Positions 1 through 6,513 of a stretch of 13,324 nt of DNA are shown here, piece by piece; the first letter of the stretch is position 1; each line of letters starts with the position of its first letter. The translations under genes and the position numbers were made by a program. Source of the stretch: a virus. Lineage: Duplodnaviria; Heunggongvirae; Uroviricota; Caudoviricetes. The notes below the pieces were generated by a model that saw only the letters and a program-made list of their open reading frames with translations, was not told the origin of the DNA and did no database searches. The DNA lies in the IMG/VR virus record IMGVR_UViG_2695420744_000004, positions 1 to 13,324 of that record; one strand, 5' to 3'.

Positions 1-5
1 ACTTT

Positions 6-63
6 AAAAAGGGCGGCAGAGCAGTCACGGAGTAAAACTGATACCGCCAAACGTCACCAGAAA
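6..63 (-). ncRNA. dicF: DicF-like small RNA, 3' portion with terminator at the window edge
   Basis: The minus-strand reading of 63..1 is UUUCUGGUGACGUUUGGCGGUAUCAGUUUUACUCCGUGACUGCUCUGCCGCCCUUUUUAAAGU, which matches my recollection of the ~53-nt E. coli DicF RNA. It has GGCGG/CCGCC pairing and ends in a U-run like an intrinsic terminator. It lies at the distal end of the leftward early operon, as dicF does in Qin. Recalled, not searched. Confidence 0.6.
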
Positions 64-305
64 ATGGATAACAGAGGGCGTTGCAGCGTGGTTGTCTCTT
101 AAGCGTATGGTCAACCTGACAACCCGGTGCTCCACAGGGGGAGAAGAGTACCCCCGCCATACTTACCGCCGCGCCGTTTCGCGGATTGCCACAACCGGGA
201 GCGCACGGTCGACGAAAATTTAACGACAAGCCATCTATGAACCAGAAACCTCGCCGTGCGCTTTCGTGTTGTGTGCCTGCTTTTAACCACGTCAGGCGAG
301 GTGGT

Positions 306-334
306 ATCCTTAAAATCACCACAGTTTTAAGGAT
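306..334. promoter_or_regulatory. perfect 10-bp inverted repeat (ATCCTTAAAA / TTTTAAGGAT, 9-bp spacer) just upstream of the 345 start codon
   Basis: Arms at 306-315 and 325-334 are exact reverse complements. No U-run follows on either strand, so a protein-binding site or RNA structure is more likely than a terminator. Confidence 0.3.
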
Positions 335-344
335 TCATTAAGCA

Positions 345-665
345 ATGTCGCAACCACCAATAAATCCACTTAAGAACATGAAAATTGATTACTGGTATAA
401 AGCGCTTACAGTTGTTGGCGCTGCGTTGTTTGTCTTTAATGGAACGTCTTTTTTCGACAGATATCCCGTTGTTCCATTGGGTTTTTTGTCCTCCGGCATC
501 TTTTTTATTGGTTTGGGAGAGTGGATTAACCACCCTCTCAAAGTGAGATTTATTGGTCCTGGAGTTTGGGCTCGTGGATATAACCGTTCTTCGTGCTCAC
601 TCGGTATCATCTTCGACATACTTGGTTGTTTCCTGATTGTTACAGGAGTCGTCAAGTTCTTCTGA
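345..665 (+). CDS. small integral membrane protein (about three hydrophobic helices), possibly superinfection-exclusion-like given its sieB-like position
   Basis: 106-aa ORF with three hydrophobic stretches (ALTVVGAALFVF, VVPLGFLSSGIFFIGLGEW, SLGIIFDILGCFLIVTGVV). It is on the opposite strand to the flanking leftward early genes, as sieB is in Rac. Function is inferred from position only. Confidence 0.5.
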   Translation: MSQPPINPLKNMKIDYWYKALTVVGAALFVFNGTSFFDRYPVVPLGFLSSGIFFIGLGEWINHPLKVRFIGPGVWARGYNRSSCSLGIIFDILGCFLIVTGVVKFF

Positions 666-902
666 TGTAAAACCGCAAATGGGGCACGTAACGGGAATTT
701 TGAAAAGCGTTTCTCCGGGTTCCAGAACAAAATTTTCTGCGGTCTGATTTTGCTTCTCATATTTGTGCTCCGCGTCATTGTGAGAGCACATTCTTATTCT
801 GAGTGCCTGTTTAAACTCACTGAAGCTGAGAGCTTCTTCGCCTTCGGCAAGGCCTTCGAAGTATTCTTCGTAAGCCTTTTCCATGATTGTGTCGAAATCC
901 AT
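597..902 (-). CDS. hypothetical early-left protein (101 aa, acidic N-terminus, C-terminal CPICG motif)
   Basis: ATG at 902 sits one nucleotide after the upstream gene's stop (TGAtATG) with an AGGTGA Shine-Dalgarno inside that gene's end, indicating translational coupling. The 3' end overlaps the convergent membrane-protein ORF by 69 nt. Confidence 0.45.
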   Translation of the reverse strand: MDFDTIMEKAYEEYFEGLAEGEEALSFSEFKQALRIRMCSHNDAEHKYEKQNQTAENFVLEPGETLFKIPVTCPICGFTSEELDDSCNNQETTKYVEDDTE

Positions 903-903
903 A

Positions 904-1059
904 TCACTCACCTGAGTTTCTTTCCAGCCAGCGACGGGCACCATTTTCGGTTTTAAACGTTTTGCTTTTGGTATACGTCATCGCGGTGAACGTACCGTCC
1001 TGGTTGGGGAACACGCCACATACCAGAGATTCGTTGTTGCCAAGATCGATAGTATCCAT
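904..1059 (-). CDS. small prophage early protein, YdaF/YdfA-like (51 aa)
   Basis: Internal ATG at 1059 preceded by GAGGT; product MDTIDLGNNESLVCGVFPNQDGTFTAMTYTKSKTFKTENGARRWLERNSGE. It is the first gene after the PL-like promoter. An alternative in-frame start at 1140 would give 78 aa. The family call is recalled with moderate certainty. Confidence 0.5.
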   Translation of the reverse strand: MDTIDLGNNESLVCGVFPNQDGTFTAMTYTKSKTFKTENGARRWLERNSGE

Positions 1060-1238
1060 GCTGACCTCATTTCCCCTTAACGCCGGGGTAGCGGAACAAA
1101 AACCTGCTGCATAGTTATTAAAGTTGAACCCTGCCGTCATGTTCTTACGCCTCGGGCTGGCTACTTAACCCCTGACCACTGCCTGGTAACTCGAAGTATT
1201 GCCTGGCGTTCTGTGGGGCGGGGTGGGTTGATGAAATA

Positions 1239-1279
1239 ATGATGCACTTTTAAAGTTATGATGTCAACACTTATAAAGT
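1239..1279 (-). promoter_or_regulatory. PL-like leftward promoter with two operator repeats
   Basis: On the minus strand: -35 TTGACA (1267-1262), 17-bp spacer, -10 CATCAT (1244-1239). Operator-like ACTTTTAAAGT (1246-1256) lies in the spacer and ACTTATAAAGT (1269-1279) just upstream, 23 bp apart. The first is the exact reverse complement of the site in the PR spacer (2308-2318). Confidence 0.45.
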
Positions 1280-1291
1280 TAGCTTTTGATC

Positions 1292-1319
1292 AATAAAAAC
1301 CGCCTCGTGTGAAGCGGTT
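1292..1319 (-). terminator. intrinsic terminator downstream of the parE-like gene
   Basis: Minus-strand RNA AACCGCUUC-ACAC-GAGGCGGUU followed by UUUAUUG: 9-bp stem (one G-U), 4-nt loop, U-rich tail, about 17 nt after the toxin stop. Confidence 0.6.
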
Positions 1320-1335
1320 CTGCGAAAAAAGAGGA

Positions 1336-1617
1336 TTATCCAGGAAATTGTCGTCTGGAGTGGGTGACACTTACTATTTCAACACTCGAAGCGGCTACAC
1401 GGTACAGAATGATATAGTTAGGATGAGCTACAATCTCACGCAAGCCAAACGCTCTGTCGCTTGATGGGTATAAGTACGGATGTTCAGATAAAGCTAAAAC
1501 ACATGTCTCAATGCGAATCTTTAGCCTGCGTGCGGCATGGAGATTTTCTTTTGCAATATAGGCTACGATCTGACGTAAATCATCACGTGCAGAAGGTAGC
1601 CATAAAATGGGCAGCAT
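1336..1617 (-). CDS. parE: ParE/RelE-superfamily type II toxin (93 aa)
   Basis: Small basic protein with the typical toxin size. Its start overlaps the stop of the upstream antitoxin ORF. It resembles the ParE2 toxin of the paaR2-paaA2-parE2 system described in E. coli O157 prophages (recalled). Confidence 0.8.
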   Translation of the reverse strand: MLPILWLPSARDDLRQIVAYIAKENLHAARRLKIRIETCVLALSEHPYLYPSSDRAFGLREIVAHPNYIILYRVAASSVEIVSVTHSRRQFPG

Positions 1618-1808
1618 TACACACTCCCGCTAGTCGCAGCAATTTGGGCAATGAGATTTTCCATTTCTGCCATTACATCATCATGAGGAATTGCAGGGCG
1701 CGGATCTGCAAGATTTGCAGCTACTTTTGCACGTAGCCATTCGTTGTAATTATTTTCTTGCTCAACGGTTTCAAACTCAGAAACCATCGGCGAAAGGGCA
1801 GTGTTCAT
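1617..1808 (-). CDS. paaA: PaaA-like antitoxin (63 aa)
   Basis: Start chosen at the internal ATG (1808) preceded by AGGAGG; product MNTALSPMVSEFETVEQENNYNEWLRAKVAANLADPRPAIPHDDVMAEMENLIAQIAATSGSV. Size and sequence match my recollection of the 63-aa PaaA2 antitoxin. Coupled to the downstream toxin. Confidence 0.75.
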   Translation of the reverse strand: MNTALSPMVSEFETVEQENNYNEWLRAKVAANLADPRPAIPHDDVMAEMENLIAQIAATSGSV

Positions 1809-1837
1809 AACATACCTCCTTTGGCTTATGATGTAGA

Positions 1838-2245
1838 CTATGCTCGGTGCCCTTTCTGGGCAGCGAGCCATCTTGCAACAGTGCGCTCCATTGATTCTTT
1901 TTTGTCTTTCATGTCTTTAAGCATTTTTTCTTGATCTTCCTCTGGAAATGCTCCGAATGTTTGAAGCAGTTCCATTTGCCTGGGGCCTATTTTCATAGTA
2001 TCTGGCACCACAACCTGCTCTTCTTCGTTTGGCGGTAACATAAACCAATATGGGGGATAACCCGTTACTTCAGAAAGTTTATCAAGATTAGCTGTTGATG
2101 GACTTGTGATTCCGTGAACCCACTTTTGTACCGATTGCTGGGCAACACCAATCCTGCGGGCTAGTTCTGCCTGCTTAAGTCCTGTTTTTTCCAGTACCAA
2201 TTTTATTCGGTACGTGGTTATTTCAAGGGTGGTCATTCGCTTCAT
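1838..2245 (-). CDS. paaR: HTH (XRE/CI-type) repressor, PaaR-like; first gene of the three-gene operon and in the cI position of the switch
   Basis: HTH motif GLKQAELARRIGVAQQSVQKWVHG. Divergent from the Cro-like gene across an operator-bearing 107-bp region. There is no obvious S24 peptidase domain (135 aa only). The first codon lies about 7 nt downstream of a TAAAAT -10, suggesting a leaderless mRNA. Confidence 0.7.
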   Translation of the reverse strand: MKRMTTLEITTYRIKLVLEKTGLKQAELARRIGVAQQSVQKWVHGITSPSTANLDKLSEVTGYPPYWFMLPPNEEEQVVVPDTMKIGPRQMELLQTFGAFPEEDQEKMLKDMKDKKESMERTVARWLAAQKGHRA

Positions 2246-2352
2246 GCATTCATTTTACATAAAAAAAGTGTAACTAGCACAATCAGCTTAAAGGTGTTGA
2301 TAAACTAACTTTAAAAGTGTATAAATCATGGTGATTCACTGGAGATAACGAT
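2246..2352. promoter_or_regulatory. divergent promoter/operator region (PR-like, and a PRM-like promoter for the repressor)
   Basis: Plus strand: -35 TTGATA (2297-2302), 17-bp spacer, -10 TATAAA (2320-2325) preceded by TG, and GGAGA Shine-Dalgarno 8 nt before ATG 2353. Three AAAG(G)TGT repeats at about 2265, 2290 and 2313, roughly 23-25 bp apart (OR1-3 analogues). Minus strand: TAAAAT at 2257-2252. Confidence 0.6.
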
Positions 2353-2619
2353 ATGCATGAATGTTTAAAAAATAAAATTCACCAAAGAGGGTTATCCCAA
2401 GCAGGTATTGCTCGTTTGATTGGATTACCGCAACAGGTTGTGTCTCGATGGGCTAATGGTCAGCAGGTCCCTGCATCAAGGGTTCTGCAACTTTGTGAGA
2501 TTATGGCGTGGGAGGTTACCCCACACGAACTCCGACCTGATATTTATCCTAACCCAACAGACGGCTTGCCTGCTGAGTTTCAGACTAGCACACAGCCAGC
2601 GACGGGAGTTGATTCATGA
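2353..2619 (+). CDS. ydaS: YdaS-family Cro-like HTH regulator
   Basis: HTH motif SQAGIARLIGLPQQVVSRWANG. Divergent from the repressor and overlaps the downstream ydaT-like start (ATGA). Confidence 0.75.
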   Translation: MHECLKNKIHQRGLSQAGIARLIGLPQQVVSRWANGQQVPASRVLQLCEIMAWEVTPHELRPDIYPNPTDGLPAEFQTSTQPATGVDS

Positions 2620-3041
2620 AAATCAAGCATGAGCACATCCGCATGGCGATGAATGCCTGGGCATATCCTGACGGTGAGAAGGTGCCAGCTGCTGCTATTG
2701 CCAGAGCGTATTTTGAACTGGGGATGACATATCCCGAGTTGCACAACGACGACAGGCACAACGCGCTCTATCTCAACACCCAAAAGATTTTCCGTTGGCT
2801 GGATAAAGACACTCCTGATGCTGTTGAGAAAATTCAGGCATTGTTACCGGCGATCGAAAGGGCAATGCCACCTCCGCTGGTAGCCCGAATGCGCAGCCAC
2901 AGTTCCGCTTATTTTCGGGAGCTGGTGGAGACGCAGGAACGGCTAGTGAAAGATATCGATGATTTCGTTGCATCAGCGATCGTTCTGTTCGACCAGATGA
3001 ATCGTGGTGGTCCTGCGGGTAATTCCGTGGCTGTGCATTGA
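2616..3041 (+). CDS. ydaT: YdaT-family protein (CII-like regulator analogue)
   Basis: 141-aa protein translationally coupled to the ydaS-like gene; synteny with Rac ydaS-ydaT. Family recalled, not searched. Confidence 0.7.
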   Translation: MKIKHEHIRMAMNAWAYPDGEKVPAAAIARAYFELGMTYPELHNDDRHNALYLNTQKIFRWLDKDTPDAVEKIQALLPAIERAMPPPLVARMRSHSSAYFRELVETQERLVKDIDDFVASAIVLFDQMNRGGPAGNSVAVH

Positions 3042-3112
3042 CTGAAAATATTTATACCGGATCGCTTCCGGCAATTCGTGAGTAAAAAGATTCGGTCTCA
3101 GAAGAGGTGAGT

Positions 3113-4153
3113 ATGGCTAATGCCTGGCTCAGATTATGGCATGACATGCCAAATGACCCTAAGTGGCGAACAATTTCCAGGGTGTCAGGACAGCCAATCG
3201 CAACAGTGATGGCTGTGTATATCCACCTTCTGGTGAGCGCGTCACGAAATGTCACGACATGTCACGGCGTGTCACTACGTGGTCACATTGATGTCACAAC
3301 GGAAGATTTAGCAAGTGCACTTGATGTGACGGAAGAAGTAATTGATTCAATTTTGCAGGCGATGCAGGGGCGGGTGCTTGATGGAGATTTAATCACTGGA
3401 TGGGAAAAACGCCAGGTAGCGAAAGAGGATAACGGCAACGTTTCGCAAACCGCGAAATCCCCGGCAGAGCGTAAGAGAGCACAACGCGAGAGGGAAAAAT
3501 TACGAAAACAGAATGAGGGGTGTCACGATGAGTCACGCATATGTCACGACATGTCACTACGAGTCACGACAGATAAAGATACAGATAAAGAATTAAACCC
3601 CACACATAACGCGCGCGTGCGCGAGAGTGCTCCGACCAGTGAATCGAACGGTACGCCGTTGCAGGCAGCGGAACCTGATTACCAGGAAAGCCTGAGCGAA
3701 CCCATCGGGAAGTTTCCGATGGCCGGTGGCTGGCATCCGTCGCCGGATTTTCGACGGCGGGCTGCACTGTGGGGAGTGGCTCTGCCGGAGCCTGAATTTA
3801 CACCTGCTGAACTTGCCGCCTTCAGGGACTACTGGGCAGCTGAGGGGAAAGTTTTTACGCAGGTTCAGTGGGAGCAGAAATTCGCCCGTCACGTAAATCA
3901 CGTCAGGGCGCAGGTTAAACCAGTCAGCAAGGGGGTGCGTCATGCAGCAGCACCAGGTGGCACCGCATCACGGGCAGTTCGGGAAATTCGGGCAGCACGT
4001 GAGCAGTGGGAACGTGAAAACGGATTTGTCAGCGACGGAAACGGCGTGGAAGCTGTGGGAGCTCATGGGGGAGGTTTATTCAAACCGCTGGACTCAGAAG
4101 AACGGGGCCGCACCTTCGAAGCTCTGGATTGCCCAGATTGGCGCGATGACTGA
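3113..4153 (+). CDS. replication initiator (lambda O analogue) with a C-terminal DnaT-like domain
   Basis: Two iteron clusters lie inside the N-terminal coding region. Residues FPMAGGWHPSPDFRRRAALWGVALPEPEFTPAELAAFRDYWAAEGKVFTQVQWEQKFARHV align with the recalled C-terminal domain of E. coli DnaT (…ALWGVAL…YWQAEGKVFHHVQWQQKLA…). AAGAGG Shine-Dalgarno before ATG 3113. The 3' end is uncertain because the frame overlaps the P-like gene. Confidence 0.7.
   Translation: MANAWLRLWHDMPNDPKWRTISRVSGQPIATVMAVYIHLLVSASRNVTTCHGVSLRGHIDVTTEDLASALDVTEEVIDSILQAMQGRVLDGDLITGWEKRQVAKEDNGNVSQTAKSPAERKRAQREREKLRKQNEGCHDESRICHDMSLRVTTDKDTDKELNPTHNARVRESAPTSESNGTPLQAAEPDYQESLSEPIGKFPMAGGWHPSPDFRRRAALWGVALPEPEFTPAELAAFRDYWAAEGKVFTQVQWEQKFARHVNHVRAQVKPVSKGVRHAAAPGGTASRAVREIRAAREQWERENGFVSDGNGVEAVGAHGGGLFKPLDSEERGRTFEALDCPDWRDD
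3241..3297. repeat. iteron cluster 1: six GTCAC(G) repeats at about 10-bp spacing inside the initiator gene
   Basis: GTCAC cores at 3241, 3251, 3261, 3271, 3282 and 3293. Confidence 0.6.
3521..3597. repeat. iteron cluster 2 (five GTCAC repeats at 10-bp spacing) plus adjacent AT-rich tract: candidate replication origin
   Basis: GTCAC cores at 3522, 3532, 3543, 3553 and 3563, followed by AGATAAAGATACAGATAAAGAATTAAA (3571-3597). Iterons next to an AT-rich region is the lambda ori arrangement. Confidence 0.65.
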
Positions 4154-4607
4154 ACAGCAAATCAGGCTGGTCTGCCGTCAGTGCATGGACCGCTGCCGGG
4201 CGGGTGAAACGTGGCCCCCGGACCTGGCTGAGTTTGTTGCGCTGATTTCGGAGAGTGGGGCAAATCCATTTGGTCTTACGGTGGATGCCGTGATGGAAGA
4301 GTACCGGCGCTGGCGCAATGAATCCTGGCGGTACGACGGGAGTGATAAATACCCGTGGCCACAGCCTGTGCTGTACCACATTTGCCTCGAGATGCGCACC
4401 AGAGGGATTGAACGTCAGATGACTGAAAGTGAGCTGAAACGACTTGCAGAACGACTGTTGACCAAATGGGCAAAGAATGTTGGTAACGGCATGAGTGTTC
4501 CGCCAGTGCGACGACAACTGGAAGGGCCAAAACACCCGCCAGGGCCAACGCCAATTGAGTTACTGAAACAGGAATATGAGCGCCGGAAAGCGGCTGGTTT
4601 TGTCTGA
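3942..4607 (+). CDS. lambda P-like replication protein (DnaB helicase loader)
   Basis: The C-terminal two-thirds align with recalled lambda P (ours YPWPQPVLYHICLEMRTRGIERQMTESELKRLAERLLTKW against lambda YPWKSNAHYWLVTNLYQNMRANALTDAELRRKAADELVHM). Strong AAGGGGG Shine-Dalgarno 6 nt before ATG 3942. A later start at ATG 4065 is possible. Confidence 0.8.
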   Translation: MQQHQVAPHHGQFGKFGQHVSSGNVKTDLSATETAWKLWELMGEVYSNRWTQKNGAAPSKLWIAQIGAMTEQQIRLVCRQCMDRCRAGETWPPDLAEFVALISESGANPFGLTVDAVMEEYRRWRNESWRYDGSDKYPWPQPVLYHICLEMRTRGIERQMTESELKRLAERLLTKWAKNVGNGMSVPPVRRQLEGPKHPPGPTPIELLKQEYERRKAAGFV

Positions 4608-4640
4608 ATTTGAGAAATGATTTTGTCGGAGGAAATTTTA

Positions 4641-5354
4641 ATGGAAACCGTTTTTGACGCACTGAAAGCACTGAAAAGAGCCTCTTCACAGGAGGTGTCG
4701 GCCCGCCTTGGAATCAGCCGCGAAGATGCTGTCAACGAGCTGTGGAAGCTGAAACGCCGTGGTGAAGCAGATAACAAGGGGTCGATGTGGTGGCTGACGA
4801 TTGAGGCAACTGAAATGGTCACAAAAACCACTGCGGAGATGCTGATTAACTCAATTGAACAGCATGGTCCTCAGTCGGCTGACGAACTGGCGTTAATGTT
4901 CGGGATTACCTCCCGCCGGGCGAATTCAACGCTGGCAATGGCAATAAGCAAAGGTCGTCTGATTCGAGTAAATCAGAACGGTAAATTTCGTTACTGCCTG
5001 TCGGGCGATAATTTACCAGCAGAGCCGAAAGCTGCATCGGTAACGGAAACTGCTGGTAAAGCCTTTCCTCAGACAGCAGGTGTTGCGTTACCAGTCCGGG
5101 AAGCGGAAACACAGGAAGAAATTAAAACTGAAAGTGTGGCGGTCACAGTGCAGTCACAGCCGTCGTTCACCAGAAAGCATCCGGATAGTCTGATTTTACC
5201 ATCGCTGCATGTGGCTAACCGCGAACTGCGCCGGGCAAAAGGTCAGGTTCAGAAGTGGGAGCGAGTCTGTGCTGCGCTGCGTGAGCTGAACAAGCACCAG
5301 GATATTGTTCGACAGATTGTCGATTCCTCCAGTCGTATTGTGTCGGAAAAGTGA
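4641..5354 (+). CDS. hypothetical protein with two predicted winged-helix-like segments
   Basis: GGAGG Shine-Dalgarno 8 nt before ATG 4641 (the ORF track's upstream start at 4617 lacks one). Function unknown. Confidence 0.55.
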
Positions 5355-5369
5355 TTGCCGGAGGTACTT

Positions 5370-5762
5370 ATGGCAAGAGTATTTACACAGGAAGAGCGGG
5401 AAGAAGTGAAGGCGCGCATTGTGGAATTCGTGCGCCTGAGCGGACGAGAAACTTTTCGACAACTGGCAGATAAAACGGGTGTCAGTAAGACCGCTATTCG
5501 TCGTTTATCTGGTGCGCTTGCGGCCAGTGGTGATGTCTGGCTCTCTGATTGCGGGGTATTTCCATCAGAGCAGGCGTATCGCGTATGGCGTAAGACACCG
5601 GAGAAGGCTGCTGACCCGACACTGATTCGAAAGTTACCTGACGGAGAAATACGTCGTTACAACAGATGGCAGAACATAATTTGTCGTGAGTGCCGCCAGA
5701 GCGAGGTTATGCAGCGTGTGCTGGCGTTCTATCGGGGAAACTTTCAGGAGGTGATGGAGTGA
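5370..5762 (+). CDS. hypothetical protein, possible HTH (QLADKTGVSKTAIRRL)
   Basis: GGAGG Shine-Dalgarno 6 nt before ATG 5370. The stop overlaps the next gene's GTG start. Confidence 0.5.
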   Translation: MARVFTQEEREEVKARIVEFVRLSGRETFRQLADKTGVSKTAIRRLSGALAASGDVWLSDCGVFPSEQAYRVWRKTPEKAADPTLIRKLPDGEIRRYNRWQNIICRECRQSEVMQRVLAFYRGNFQEVME

Positions 5763-6055
5763 GGGTGAGAGTTTATATTGCCGGTCCAATGACGGGATAT
5801 GAAAATTTCAACCGTGAGGCGTTTCACAAGGCGGAAGAGGAACTGAAACGGGAAGGGCATACCGTCTTAAACCCGGCAGTACTTCCGGACGGGCTGACAC
5901 AGCCGCACTACATGGATATTTGCATGGCAATGATTCGTTGTGTGGATGCGATTTACATGCTGAATGGCTGGCAGCGGTCAGCGGGCGCTAAGGCAGAGCT
6001 GGCACTGGCGGAGAAACTGGGGCATGCGGTGATTTATCAGGAGGTGGCTCAATGA
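5759..6055 (+). CDS. DUF4406-like / nucleoside 2-deoxyribosyltransferase-like small protein
   Basis: GTG start 8 nt after AGGAGG; N-terminus VRVYIAGPMTGYENFNREAF…VLNP matches the recalled DUF4406 signature (VYIAGPMTG). Translationally coupled on both sides. Confidence 0.55.
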   Translation: MRVRVYIAGPMTGYENFNREAFHKAEEELKREGHTVLNPAVLPDGLTQPHYMDICMAMIRCVDAIYMLNGWQRSAGAKAELALAEKLGHAVIYQEVAQ

Positions 6056-6513
6056 GAGAGGTTAACTATGAGGCGCTTCGTGAGGCAGCACAAAACTATC
6101 AGTCGACGCTGGCGTGGTATCAGGCTATCCCGGACAGCCCAAATGCTGAACGGGATTGTGATGCGGCTCTTGCTGCGTTTAAGCGTCACATCCGTCATCG
6201 GGAAGCGGATATTATCGCTGATTTGCTGGATGGACTGGAAGAAGCAAAATCACAACTCAACGAGCAGCGTGAGTATTACGAAGGCGTTATCTCTGATGGG
6301 AGCAAGCGTATTGCTGCACTGGAAGCGCGGGAAGTTCAATTACCGACTCGCTACGACCTTCGATATGGACACCCGATAAATGCAGATGAGCGACATGTCA
6401 TGATACCTAAAGAAAATGGCAGTTGGCTTTACCTGATTGACCTAGAACACGCATTACGCGTCGCTGGCATTCGCATCAAAGGAGAGGAGCATGGAAATAA
6501 AACCAGAGGATGA
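6052..6513 (+). CDS. hypothetical nin-region protein ending in the shared C-terminal IRIKGE motif
   Basis: ATGA overlap with the upstream gene and AGGAGG Shine-Dalgarno. Its 3' end carries the 18-nt sequence CATTCGCATCAAAGGAGA that also ends the gene at 6943..7368. Confidence 0.6.
   Translation: MREVNYEALREAAQNYQSTLAWYQAIPDSPNAERDCDAALAAFKRHIRHREADIIADLLDGLEEAKSQLNEQREYYEGVISDGSKRIAALEAREVQLPTRYDLRYGHPINADERHVMIPKENGSWLYLIDLEHALRVAGIRIKGEEHGNKTRG

Follow-up and report, generated by a model that had tools for sequence, protein, structure and literature searches.

The stretch of DNA analysed here, referred to throughout as the window, comprises 13,324 nucleotides (nt) (IMG/VR virus record IMGVR_UViG_2695420744_000004, positions 1 to 13,324) and represents the early region of a Qin/Rac-like lambdoid prophage of Escherichia coli. 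We focused on a segment at positions 285–801 that appears to be a mobile module with coding information on both strands. The plus strand of this segment carries a gene for a 106-amino-acid (aa) membrane protein (345..665), oriented against the leftward, dicB-type early operon. The minus strand carries an open reading frame (ORF) in the direction of that operon, and in related phages this frame extends across the whole of the plus-strand gene.

The plus-strand ORF begins with an ATG at 345, ends with a TGA stop at 663–665 and encodes a protein with the motifs IDYWYKA and GLGEWINHP. Hydropathy analysis identified three hydrophobic segments (approximately residues 17–37, 40–60 and 84–104). An AlphaFold model built on a 41-sequence alignment (predicted local distance difference test score, pLDDT, of 87) features helices at residues 17–32, 42–62 and 85–105 and a β-hairpin at 65–79. 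These results bear out the three-helix membrane protein proposed in a preliminary description of this locus, which had also correctly placed the gene antisense to the leftward operon. The model is consistent with an inner-membrane protein composed of three helices and a short hairpin. Based on the positive-inside rule, we infer that the N-terminus is likely inside and the C-terminus outside, so that the basic loop of residues 63–84 would be cytoplasmic together with the N-terminus.

This protein belongs to a broadly distributed family. A protein search returned 60 matches of conserved length (about 100–110 aa), with identities of 97% in E. coli, 52–58% in Yersinia and other enteric prophages, and 34–45% in Herminiimonas, Reinekea and many metagenomic proteins. 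A profile search against 1.84 billion representatives identified 487 at E ≤ 1e-3, nearly all of which were stand-alone proteins of ~100–115 aa. Homologues with 34–58% identity retain the length, start, stop and motifs, and are found in Gamma- and Betaproteobacteria, Desulfobacterota, Campylobacterota and other groups; truncated versions also occur among the homologues. A genome scan added members from Roseateles, Pantoea, Marinobacter, Pseudomonas, Shewanella, Arcobacter, Kushneria, Burkholderia, Desulfobacterota and others. In an alignment of 20 diverse members the gaps were confined to loops, and residues D15, W17, Y18, K19, G56, G58, E59, W60, N62, H63, P64, G87 and G94 were invariant.

The substitution pattern is also that of a protein-coding plus frame. 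Differences between the window and relatives at 52–58% identity were distributed over plus-frame codon positions 1, 2 and 3 as 36/22/58 and 40/24/61, and amino acid identity to the same relatives was 52–58% in the plus frame versus 33–36% in the antisense frame. Close E. coli copies fell into 34 haplotypes, whose plus-frame polymorphisms were 12 synonymous and 12 non-synonymous. The segment was found in 805 of 5,426 complete E. coli genomes (about 15%), and in the sampled rows of these genomes there was mostly no feature annotated at this position. We consider it very likely that the plus ORF is a genuine gene.

Searches of Pfam, PHROG, NCBIfam and PADLOC returned no family match for the plus protein, and neither the plus nor the minus protein matched PADLOC defence-system models at E ≤ 1. 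Fold searches with the plus protein were non-specific, with the best viral fold matches scoring below 0.4 on the template-modelling (TM) scale. Scanning the longer family members for informative domain fusions identified none apart from one PsbP_2-like extension. A class I holin, with three transmembrane helices and ~105 aa, was considered and rejected: neither Pfam nor PHROG gave a holin match, the C-terminus reads VVKFF in place of a charged tail, and the gene is located in the early region rather than a lysis cassette. Holin and type I toxin identities were both dismissed on size, location and the lack of matches.

The minus ORF of the window (597..902, minus strand) is 101 aa long when read from the ATG at 902, and 115 aa from an ATG at 944. 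Its start site corresponds to the ydfB start, preceded by a Shine-Dalgarno-like AGGTGA. Its frame is exactly codon-aligned with the plus frame, and it overlaps the plus ORF by 69 nt (597–665). The preliminary description had reported this overlap with a 101-aa gene, and its coordinates hold. The 101-aa length, on the other hand, is particular to the window. ORF 327..533 lies in the same frame as 597..944, and the only separator between them is a TGA at 597–599 (minus strand). This nonsense codon reads as TCA (Ser) on the plus strand, where the majority sequence has GCA (Ala), corresponding to TGC (Cys) on the minus strand. In 81 close copies sampled from viral contigs, position 597 was G in 79 and T in 2. 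With G597, the minus frame remains open to 327 over the whole plus gene and encodes 191 aa from the ydfB ATG at 902 or 205 aa from that at 944. The remainder of this antisense ORF (327..596, minus strand) is in the same frame, is open in most copies and terminates at a TAA at 327–329. Judged from these sequence comparisons, the 101-aa ORF of the window is a rare nonsense allele of a 191–205-aa ORF, and the overlap is normally total.

The full-length minus ORF is annotated in phage HannyBb as the 205-aa CDS0038. Where the Prokaryotic Genome Annotation Pipeline (PGAP) annotates anything here, it calls the 191-aa minus-strand protein WP_000344958.1. In scans of Pfam, PHROG, NCBIfam and PADLOC with the whole minus protein, the one match was phrog_35040, a family of unknown function built on the full minus ORF; the window's ORF covers its positions 15–115 of 205. 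Since the minus frame of the relatives spans the whole plus gene, the picture of an ordinary convergent pair with a short overlap had to be abandoned. The preliminary description had also allowed that homologues might reveal a shorter plus gene that does not overlap its neighbour; instead, the homologues confirm the full 106 aa, with an overlap that is usually total.

Comparison with E. coli K-12 by blastn identified homology at positions 1–284 and 802–1,097 only (97% identity over 802–1,097, ending at 801), and the middle was not homologous. On this basis, 285..801 is a 517-bp module, with features on both strands, taking the place of the ydfB C-terminus and ydfC found in K-12 Qin. The first 34 codons of the minus ORF (801..902, minus strand) are YdfB-like (phrog_2061) and are annotated in RefSeq as a partial ydfB pseudogene; with the junction at 801/802, the module joins in frame behind YdfB codon 34, so that the YdfB N-terminus is fused to the module's antisense ORF. 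We rejected an identity with full YdfB (42 aa) because the match is limited to residues 1–34. Just outside the plus gene, at 669..686 (minus strand), the minus ORF encodes a CPICGF motif that is conserved in E. coli, a relative with 58% identity and Yersinia. The mosaic junction differs in an E. coli variant (L124, IMGVR_UViG_2529292829_000010, 2692–3531), where the module has its own start (MGIREQQ...) at the would-be ydfA coding start, after a ydfA-type upstream ORF segment. In that variant the minus frame is open through the module into ydfC, with 280 codons free of stops.

Stops in the codon-aligned antisense frame can arise solely from plus-frame TTA, CTA and TCA codons. Non-phage family members have 5–17 such stops. 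None were present in the enteric prophage copies at 40–58% identity (L010/L011, Yersinia L008/L009, Pantoea L016 and mEp390), the ORFs of which are 151–164 aa long. For each of four lineages, the probability of having no antisense stop, given the codon usage of neighbouring genes, was 0.004–0.009. A scan seeded with the mEp390 version recovered 49 diverse viral contigs, most with a fully open antisense frame of 150–176 aa. The Burkholderia-phage copies have 3–6 antisense stops and are therefore single-coded.

In the phage and prophage copies these three codons (TTA, CTA and TCA) are depleted. A-ending codons are otherwise common in these genes (CCA 45/152, ACA 36/139 and GCA 53/252), as opposed to TCA (3/79) and CTA (7/309), and CCA, GGA, ACA and ATA are in free use. 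In the pooled data, CTA and TCA made up 2.6% of CTN and TCN codons, versus 21.5% A-ending codons among control four-fold codons, and pooled within-gene Fisher tests gave p = 1e-22 and 1e-14. This within-gene control, which uses A-ending codons of the same gene, overstates the case because the non-phage set also scores, and after this signal appeared we replaced it with the codon usage of neighbouring genes. With the latter control, and with each cluster (≤60% identity) represented by a single gene, antisense stops were absent from 7 of 14 phage clusters (combined p = 1e-6), whereas 18 clusters from bacterial, non-phage genomes gave a combined p of 0.93. Stop depletion recurs in lineages in which synonymous sites are near saturation. 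We conclude that the antisense frame is probably kept open by selection in phages.

The minus ORF has further attributes of a gene. ORFs of 148–166 aa occur in Enterobacter, Klebsiella, Serratia, Yersinia, Citrobacter, Erwinia and E. coli, and the largest E. coli cluster of the minus protein contains 1,798 member sequences. The ATG is preceded by ~9 nt by a conserved Shine-Dalgarno site of the AAAGGAG or GAGG type, and in the named lineages the stop falls 5 to 12 codons beyond the plus-gene start. At the other end, these ORFs reach 32–47 codons past the stop of the plus gene, where the other five frames are closed. This extension follows the pattern xYEFFERLNxxxPGSVxIDxENxTVTLxGWxLEEF in mEp390, Enterobacter, Klebsiella, Serratia, Yersinia, Citrobacter and Erwinia, and a variant with IPxxCPxCG(F/C) is found in the window (669–686), L011, Yersinia and others. 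A MAFFT alignment of the extension gave 417, 352 and 608 differences at minus-frame codon positions 1, 2 and 3. Between the window, L011 and Yersinia, every difference in the I-P and CPICGF codons is synonymous.

The module occupies two positions within early operons. The pL side, behind the repressor or ydfA/ydfB, is its location in the window, L011 and Yersinia. The module of mEp390-type phages is found between cro and a cII-like gene, with the minus ORF ending 16–30 nt before cII; copies L205, L208, L210–L212, L217 and L230 (~2940–3470) have it between cro and a CP76-type cII gene. In every context seen, the early operon and the minus ORF share one direction, and the membrane-protein gene faces the other way. 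Lambda has nutR/tR1 and pRE between cro and cII. Because the membrane-protein gene faces cro and cI, a pRE-like transcript would begin with it, an idea that is positional only: the mEp390-type phages were searched for a promoter like lambda pRE ahead of the plus gene, and no convincing TTGC-N6-TTGC with a −10 element was found. Annotators have chosen opposite strands: gp39 of mEp390 (L003, NC_019721.1, 4956–5411) is the minus ORF, and gp33 of Bcep176 (L004, 4884–5348) is the membrane-protein strand with an N-terminal extension. The mEp390 note nevertheless describes gp39 as similar to gp33.

Non-phage members of the plus-protein family are surrounded by small unannotated ORFs or genes of mobile elements, and no partner is conserved. 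Those in Reinekea (L006, 106–2729) and L249 (101–1369) are located in same-strand runs of small unannotated ORFs. The same context occurs in Arcobacter (NZ_CP182343.1, L024–L026), which has three identical copies in one genome. The same-strand runs and the triple copy suggest a cassette or other mobile element; attC-like repeats, as expected of an integron-cassette context, were sought around the non-phage members and none were evident.

Upstream of the plus gene we confirmed the perfect 10-bp inverted repeat reported earlier (ATCCTTAAAA / TTTTAAGGAT, 9-nt spacer), at 306–315/325–334. The repeat (306..334) covers both the Shine-Dalgarno sequence of the plus gene and the stop codon of the full-length minus ORF. 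The former is an AAGGA at 329..333 (plus strand), 11 nt before the ATG at 345, with equivalents in relatives. As plus-strand RNA the repeat has a predicted folding energy of −16.8 kcal/mol (z = −4.35), and this fold would bury the AAGGA. The hairpin is kept in three diverged copies beside that of the window, with variation in the inner pairs (AAAA/TTTT, AAAGC/GCTTT and AAAGG/CCTTT). The repeat could serve as an operator, as a hairpin acting on translation or as a structural element at the 3′ end of the minus ORF.

The repeat adjoins a conserved non-coding block at 269..310 (TTGTGTGCCTG...CAGGC...GGTGGTATCCT), identified in an alignment of E. coli, L011 and Yersinia and also visible in the raw upstream sequence of L124. 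Conservation of this block between E. coli and Yersinia exceeds that of the flanking coding DNA, and it contains a GCCTG/CAGGC hairpin (275–279/293–297) in addition to GGTGGTATCCT. The latter ends the block with a candidate extended −10 element, TGgTATCCT, at 302–310. If transcription of the plus gene started from this proposed −10, only the 3′ arm of the inverted repeat would be transcribed.

The operon into which the module is inserted resembles that of K-12 Qin. The first 2.5 kb of the window has 99.9% identity to a prophage located beside potC in strain JMF1 and ten other genomes. On the minus strand, a DicA-like repressor (1838–2236) is followed by genes for a RelB antitoxin (1617–1808) and a RelE/ParE-type toxin (1336–1617), both located between the repressor and a dicBp-like promoter and ydfA. 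K-12 Qin has merely a short spacer in place of this relB/relE interval (window 1336–1871, minus strand). A promoter scan identified a strong sigma-70-like sequence, TTGACA-17-CATCAT, at 1239..1267 (minus strand), which is probably the dicBp equivalent that drives the leftward operon; its position agrees with that of dicBp in K-12, where dicBp is repressed by DicA and DicF is processed out of a polycistronic transcript (PMC10448788). The gene immediately upstream of the minus ORF in the operon is ydfA, a DUF1391 gene (904..1059, minus strand; Pfam PF07151, E = 8.7e-29) that is also annotated in RefSeq. Downstream in the same leftward operon lies the DicF small RNA (11..62, minus strand; Rfam RF00039, 76.7 bits), and past the window edge a RefSeq genome identical to the window continues with dicB, ydfD, exo, xis and int. 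The plus gene therefore lies in the middle of the operon and not at its end, as had been supposed.

Elsewhere in this prophage, JMF1 (L001; identical to the window) has internal stops in ydfD and in a DUF977 gene (5460–5651 and 11370–11786), and the prophage is therefore at least partly defective. The plus strand of the window also contains two full-length matches to the sok antitoxin RNA (Rfam RF01794; 8348–8523 and 10083–10258, 112 and 120 bits), and thus two hok/sok-type loci in one prophage arm.

We consider it somewhat probable that the locus as a whole is a mobile two-strand module, in which a plus-strand membrane-protein gene is combined with an antisense ORF maintained by phages, and that it works as follows. 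The module at 285–801 would travel as a unit bearing information on both strands, with the plus gene set backwards into the early leftward operon, in the slot taken by sieB in Rac. In temperate-phage copies, as the comparisons show, the antisense frame is stop-free over the whole gene and forms an ORF of ~150 aa that has an ATG and a ribosome-binding site of its own and whose N-terminal 30–45 aa are a conserved domain. In the lysogen, with the early promoter repressed, a weak promoter of its own would drive expression of the membrane-protein gene, whose product would act at the membrane, where superinfection exclusion or a similar protection seems most plausible. When the early operon fires, transcription would run antisense across the plus gene and ribosomes would read the minus ORF. 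The product of this ORF may be largely disordered, and its translation would be carried over the reversed insert to the downstream genes, namely cII in mEp390-type phages and dicF and dicB in the window.

We read the plus gene as lysogen cargo and the minus ORF as an overprinted frame because the orientation rule holds in two operon positions. As regards the role of the plus protein, exclusion-type protection of the lysogen is our best guess, and a rather doubtful one. More tentatively, and with our judgement nearly evenly divided, we propose that enterobacterial temperate phages overprinted a new frame opposite an imported, reversed membrane gene, creating a joint module of ~500 bp. The membrane protein would then serve in the lysogen, and the antisense ORF would be translated only upon firing of the early operon. 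Its body may have been selected to stay open and so to ferry ribosomes to cII or dicF/dicB, by way of Rho-resistant transcription or translational coupling, with the N-terminal domain having a function of its own.

Several observations weigh against this reading. Antisense stops are present in the other 7 of the 14 phage clusters. Within the overlap, the minus frame shows selection for an open frame and nothing further: codons at conserved plus-frame residues are identical at 1.05 times the expectation in phage copies, versus 1.00 in non-phage copies. The AlphaFold model of the minus protein has a pLDDT of 51, and its confident part is the C-terminal helix alone. Minus ORFs are often broken in E. 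coli cryptic prophages, with nonsense alleles T597, A503 and A716; two frameshift lineages keep an intact 106-aa plus gene, and in one lineage both genes are broken. Decay of the module in cryptic prophages can be followed at loci L256 (LR134081.1), L257 and L259. The candidate promoter of the plus gene is only a weak consensus match, a strict promoter scan having identified no sigma-70 site for this gene, and no known function was linked to the plus protein by Pfam, PHROG, NCBIfam, PADLOC, fold searches or domain fusions. The support for the ORFs of both strands is comparative, and our literature search found nothing on this module and no detection of either product.

Some of these points would be accommodated if the plus gene alone were functional. 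In that case the open antisense frame would be a by-product of codon choice or shared ancestry, and the N-terminal piece would be a separate small early-operon peptide that reads on. The lack of amino acid-level constraint on the minus frame in the overlap, the mostly disordered minus model and the nonsense and frameshift alleles that accumulate in E. coli, where minus-frame polymorphisms number 5 synonymous to 19 non-synonymous (two nonsense among the latter), all fit such an explanation. So do the tendency of a codon-aligned antisense frame to be the least stop-rich shadow frame and the signal that the within-gene control gave in the non-phage set. We nevertheless consider it improbable. The neighbour-gene control renders the depletion phage-specific, and it recurs where synonymous sites are near saturation. 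By-product status also does not sit well with an ORF that has a conserved Shine-Dalgarno site and ATG and that, in all the named lineages, terminates 5 to 12 codons beyond the start of the plus gene, nor with an orientation rule that holds in two different operon positions. The converse proposal is that only the minus ORF is real in enteric phages (191–205 aa in E. coli, mEp390 gp39 and phrog_35040) and that the plus ORF is its shadow. It agrees with the operon direction, with the choice of annotators and PGAP whenever anything is called, and with the size of the largest protein cluster (1,798 members versus ~280 for the plus protein). It is very hard to reconcile with a plus protein that is conserved in distant bacteria despite 5–17 antisense stops, with the substitution pattern and amino acid identity that favour the plus frame even in enteric copies, with a confident fold for the plus protein and none for the minus protein, and with frameshifted minus alleles that retain an intact plus gene. 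We regard it as highly improbable.

The preliminary description offered a third explanation, namely a convergent pair overlapping by 69 bp in which the plus protein is a SieB-like exclusion or abortive-infection factor and its transcription dampens read-through to dicF. A small membrane protein encoded in a prophage immunity and early region, convergent with a dicBp-type promoter, agrees with this proposal, and the likeness to sieB of Rac in slot and orientation proved exact. Rac carries racR, ydaG and ydaF (the ydfA homologue, DUF1391) on one strand, sieB on the other and then kilR; the window has the repressor, relBE, ydfA (DUF1391) and the truncated ydfB (ydfB′) on one strand, the plus gene on the other and then dicF and dicB. 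The sieB gene of Rac is oriented against the leftward early operon; it follows ydaF immediately, with an overlap of 4 nt at the end of that gene, and precedes kilR. SieB, the superinfection-exclusion protein of Rac, lambda and P22, and the plus protein are alike in being small membrane proteins that are presumably made in the lysogen. The resemblance does not extend to sequence or profile: we rejected SieB (PF14163) homology after finding no Pfam match at E ≤ 1, no BLASTP alignment with Rac SieB and an hhalign probability of 0.2%. SieB is also longer (162 versus 106 aa), and the family of the plus protein reaches far beyond phages. In addition, sieB is not known to have an open frame on its other strand, a point on which no test was made. 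Given the lack of SieB homology or of any defence-model match, and an overlap of 69 bp that is confined to a rare allele, we consider this explanation unlikely.

Other known systems resemble the module in part. As in YdfB/YdfC of K-12 Qin, it sits between ydfA and dicF and the first 34 codons of the minus ORF are those of YdfB, but the rest of the ORF is unrelated and K-12 lacks a plus-strand gene at this position. Type I toxin-antitoxin loci such as hok/sok likewise have a hydrophobic membrane protein opposite an antisense transcript in a prophage. They differ in that their proteins are <60 aa with one helix, whereas the plus protein has 106 aa and three helices. Moreover, the family of the plus protein exists without an antisense partner, and the antisense element is a long operon ORF rather than a small RNA; an Rfam scan gave no match at the plus-gene locus.

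Closer parallels are the antisense overlapping pairs proposed in E. coli and Pseudomonas, including pop/ompA, ano, laoB and the P. aeruginosa pairs (PMC7103648, PMC5960689, PMC5810103, PMC8850804), and more generally the overlapping genes in antisense that have been put forward for E. coli O157:H7 and P. aeruginosa (PMC7103648, PMC5960689, PMC8850804, bioRxiv 10.1101/2020.11.18.388249). These also feature a long ORF embedded antisense, one older and conserved partner and one young partner of unusual composition that probably arose by overprinting, and pipelines that annotate one of the two. As would be expected of an overprinted pair, both frames of the module are open beyond codon-usage expectation and both ORFs have initiation signals; purifying selection is clear for the plus frame, and for the minus frame it is clear only in the N-terminal domain outside the overlap. 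The main basis of the published cases is RNA sequencing and ribosome profiling of a single strain, and conservation is usually slight, whereas the present case rests on comparative data across many diverged phages. In the module, by contrast, the embedded partner is the older gene, the antisense ORF has a conserved domain at its N-terminus, outside the overlap, and the pair changes operon position as one unit.

Long antisense overlapping genes are still a matter of dispute in bacteria, since expression data from a single strain underlie most candidates. The support described here is of a different kind, with one partner old and widely conserved and the other frame open in phage copies but not in the non-phage copies examined. 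The origin of the overprinted gene can therefore be dated, and the proposal is testable by synonymous recoding. This makes the locus a rare candidate, and a well-supported one, for a pair of genes that occupy opposite strands of one piece of DNA. It also exposes a blind spot in annotation, since a conserved gene present in about 15% of complete E. coli genomes is either omitted from RefSeq or represented by the ORF of the opposite strand. For the Qin-type prophages, it adds an uncharacterised membrane protein, probably expressed in the lysogen, to the sieB slot, beside the DicF/DicB cell-division and phage-resistance locus.

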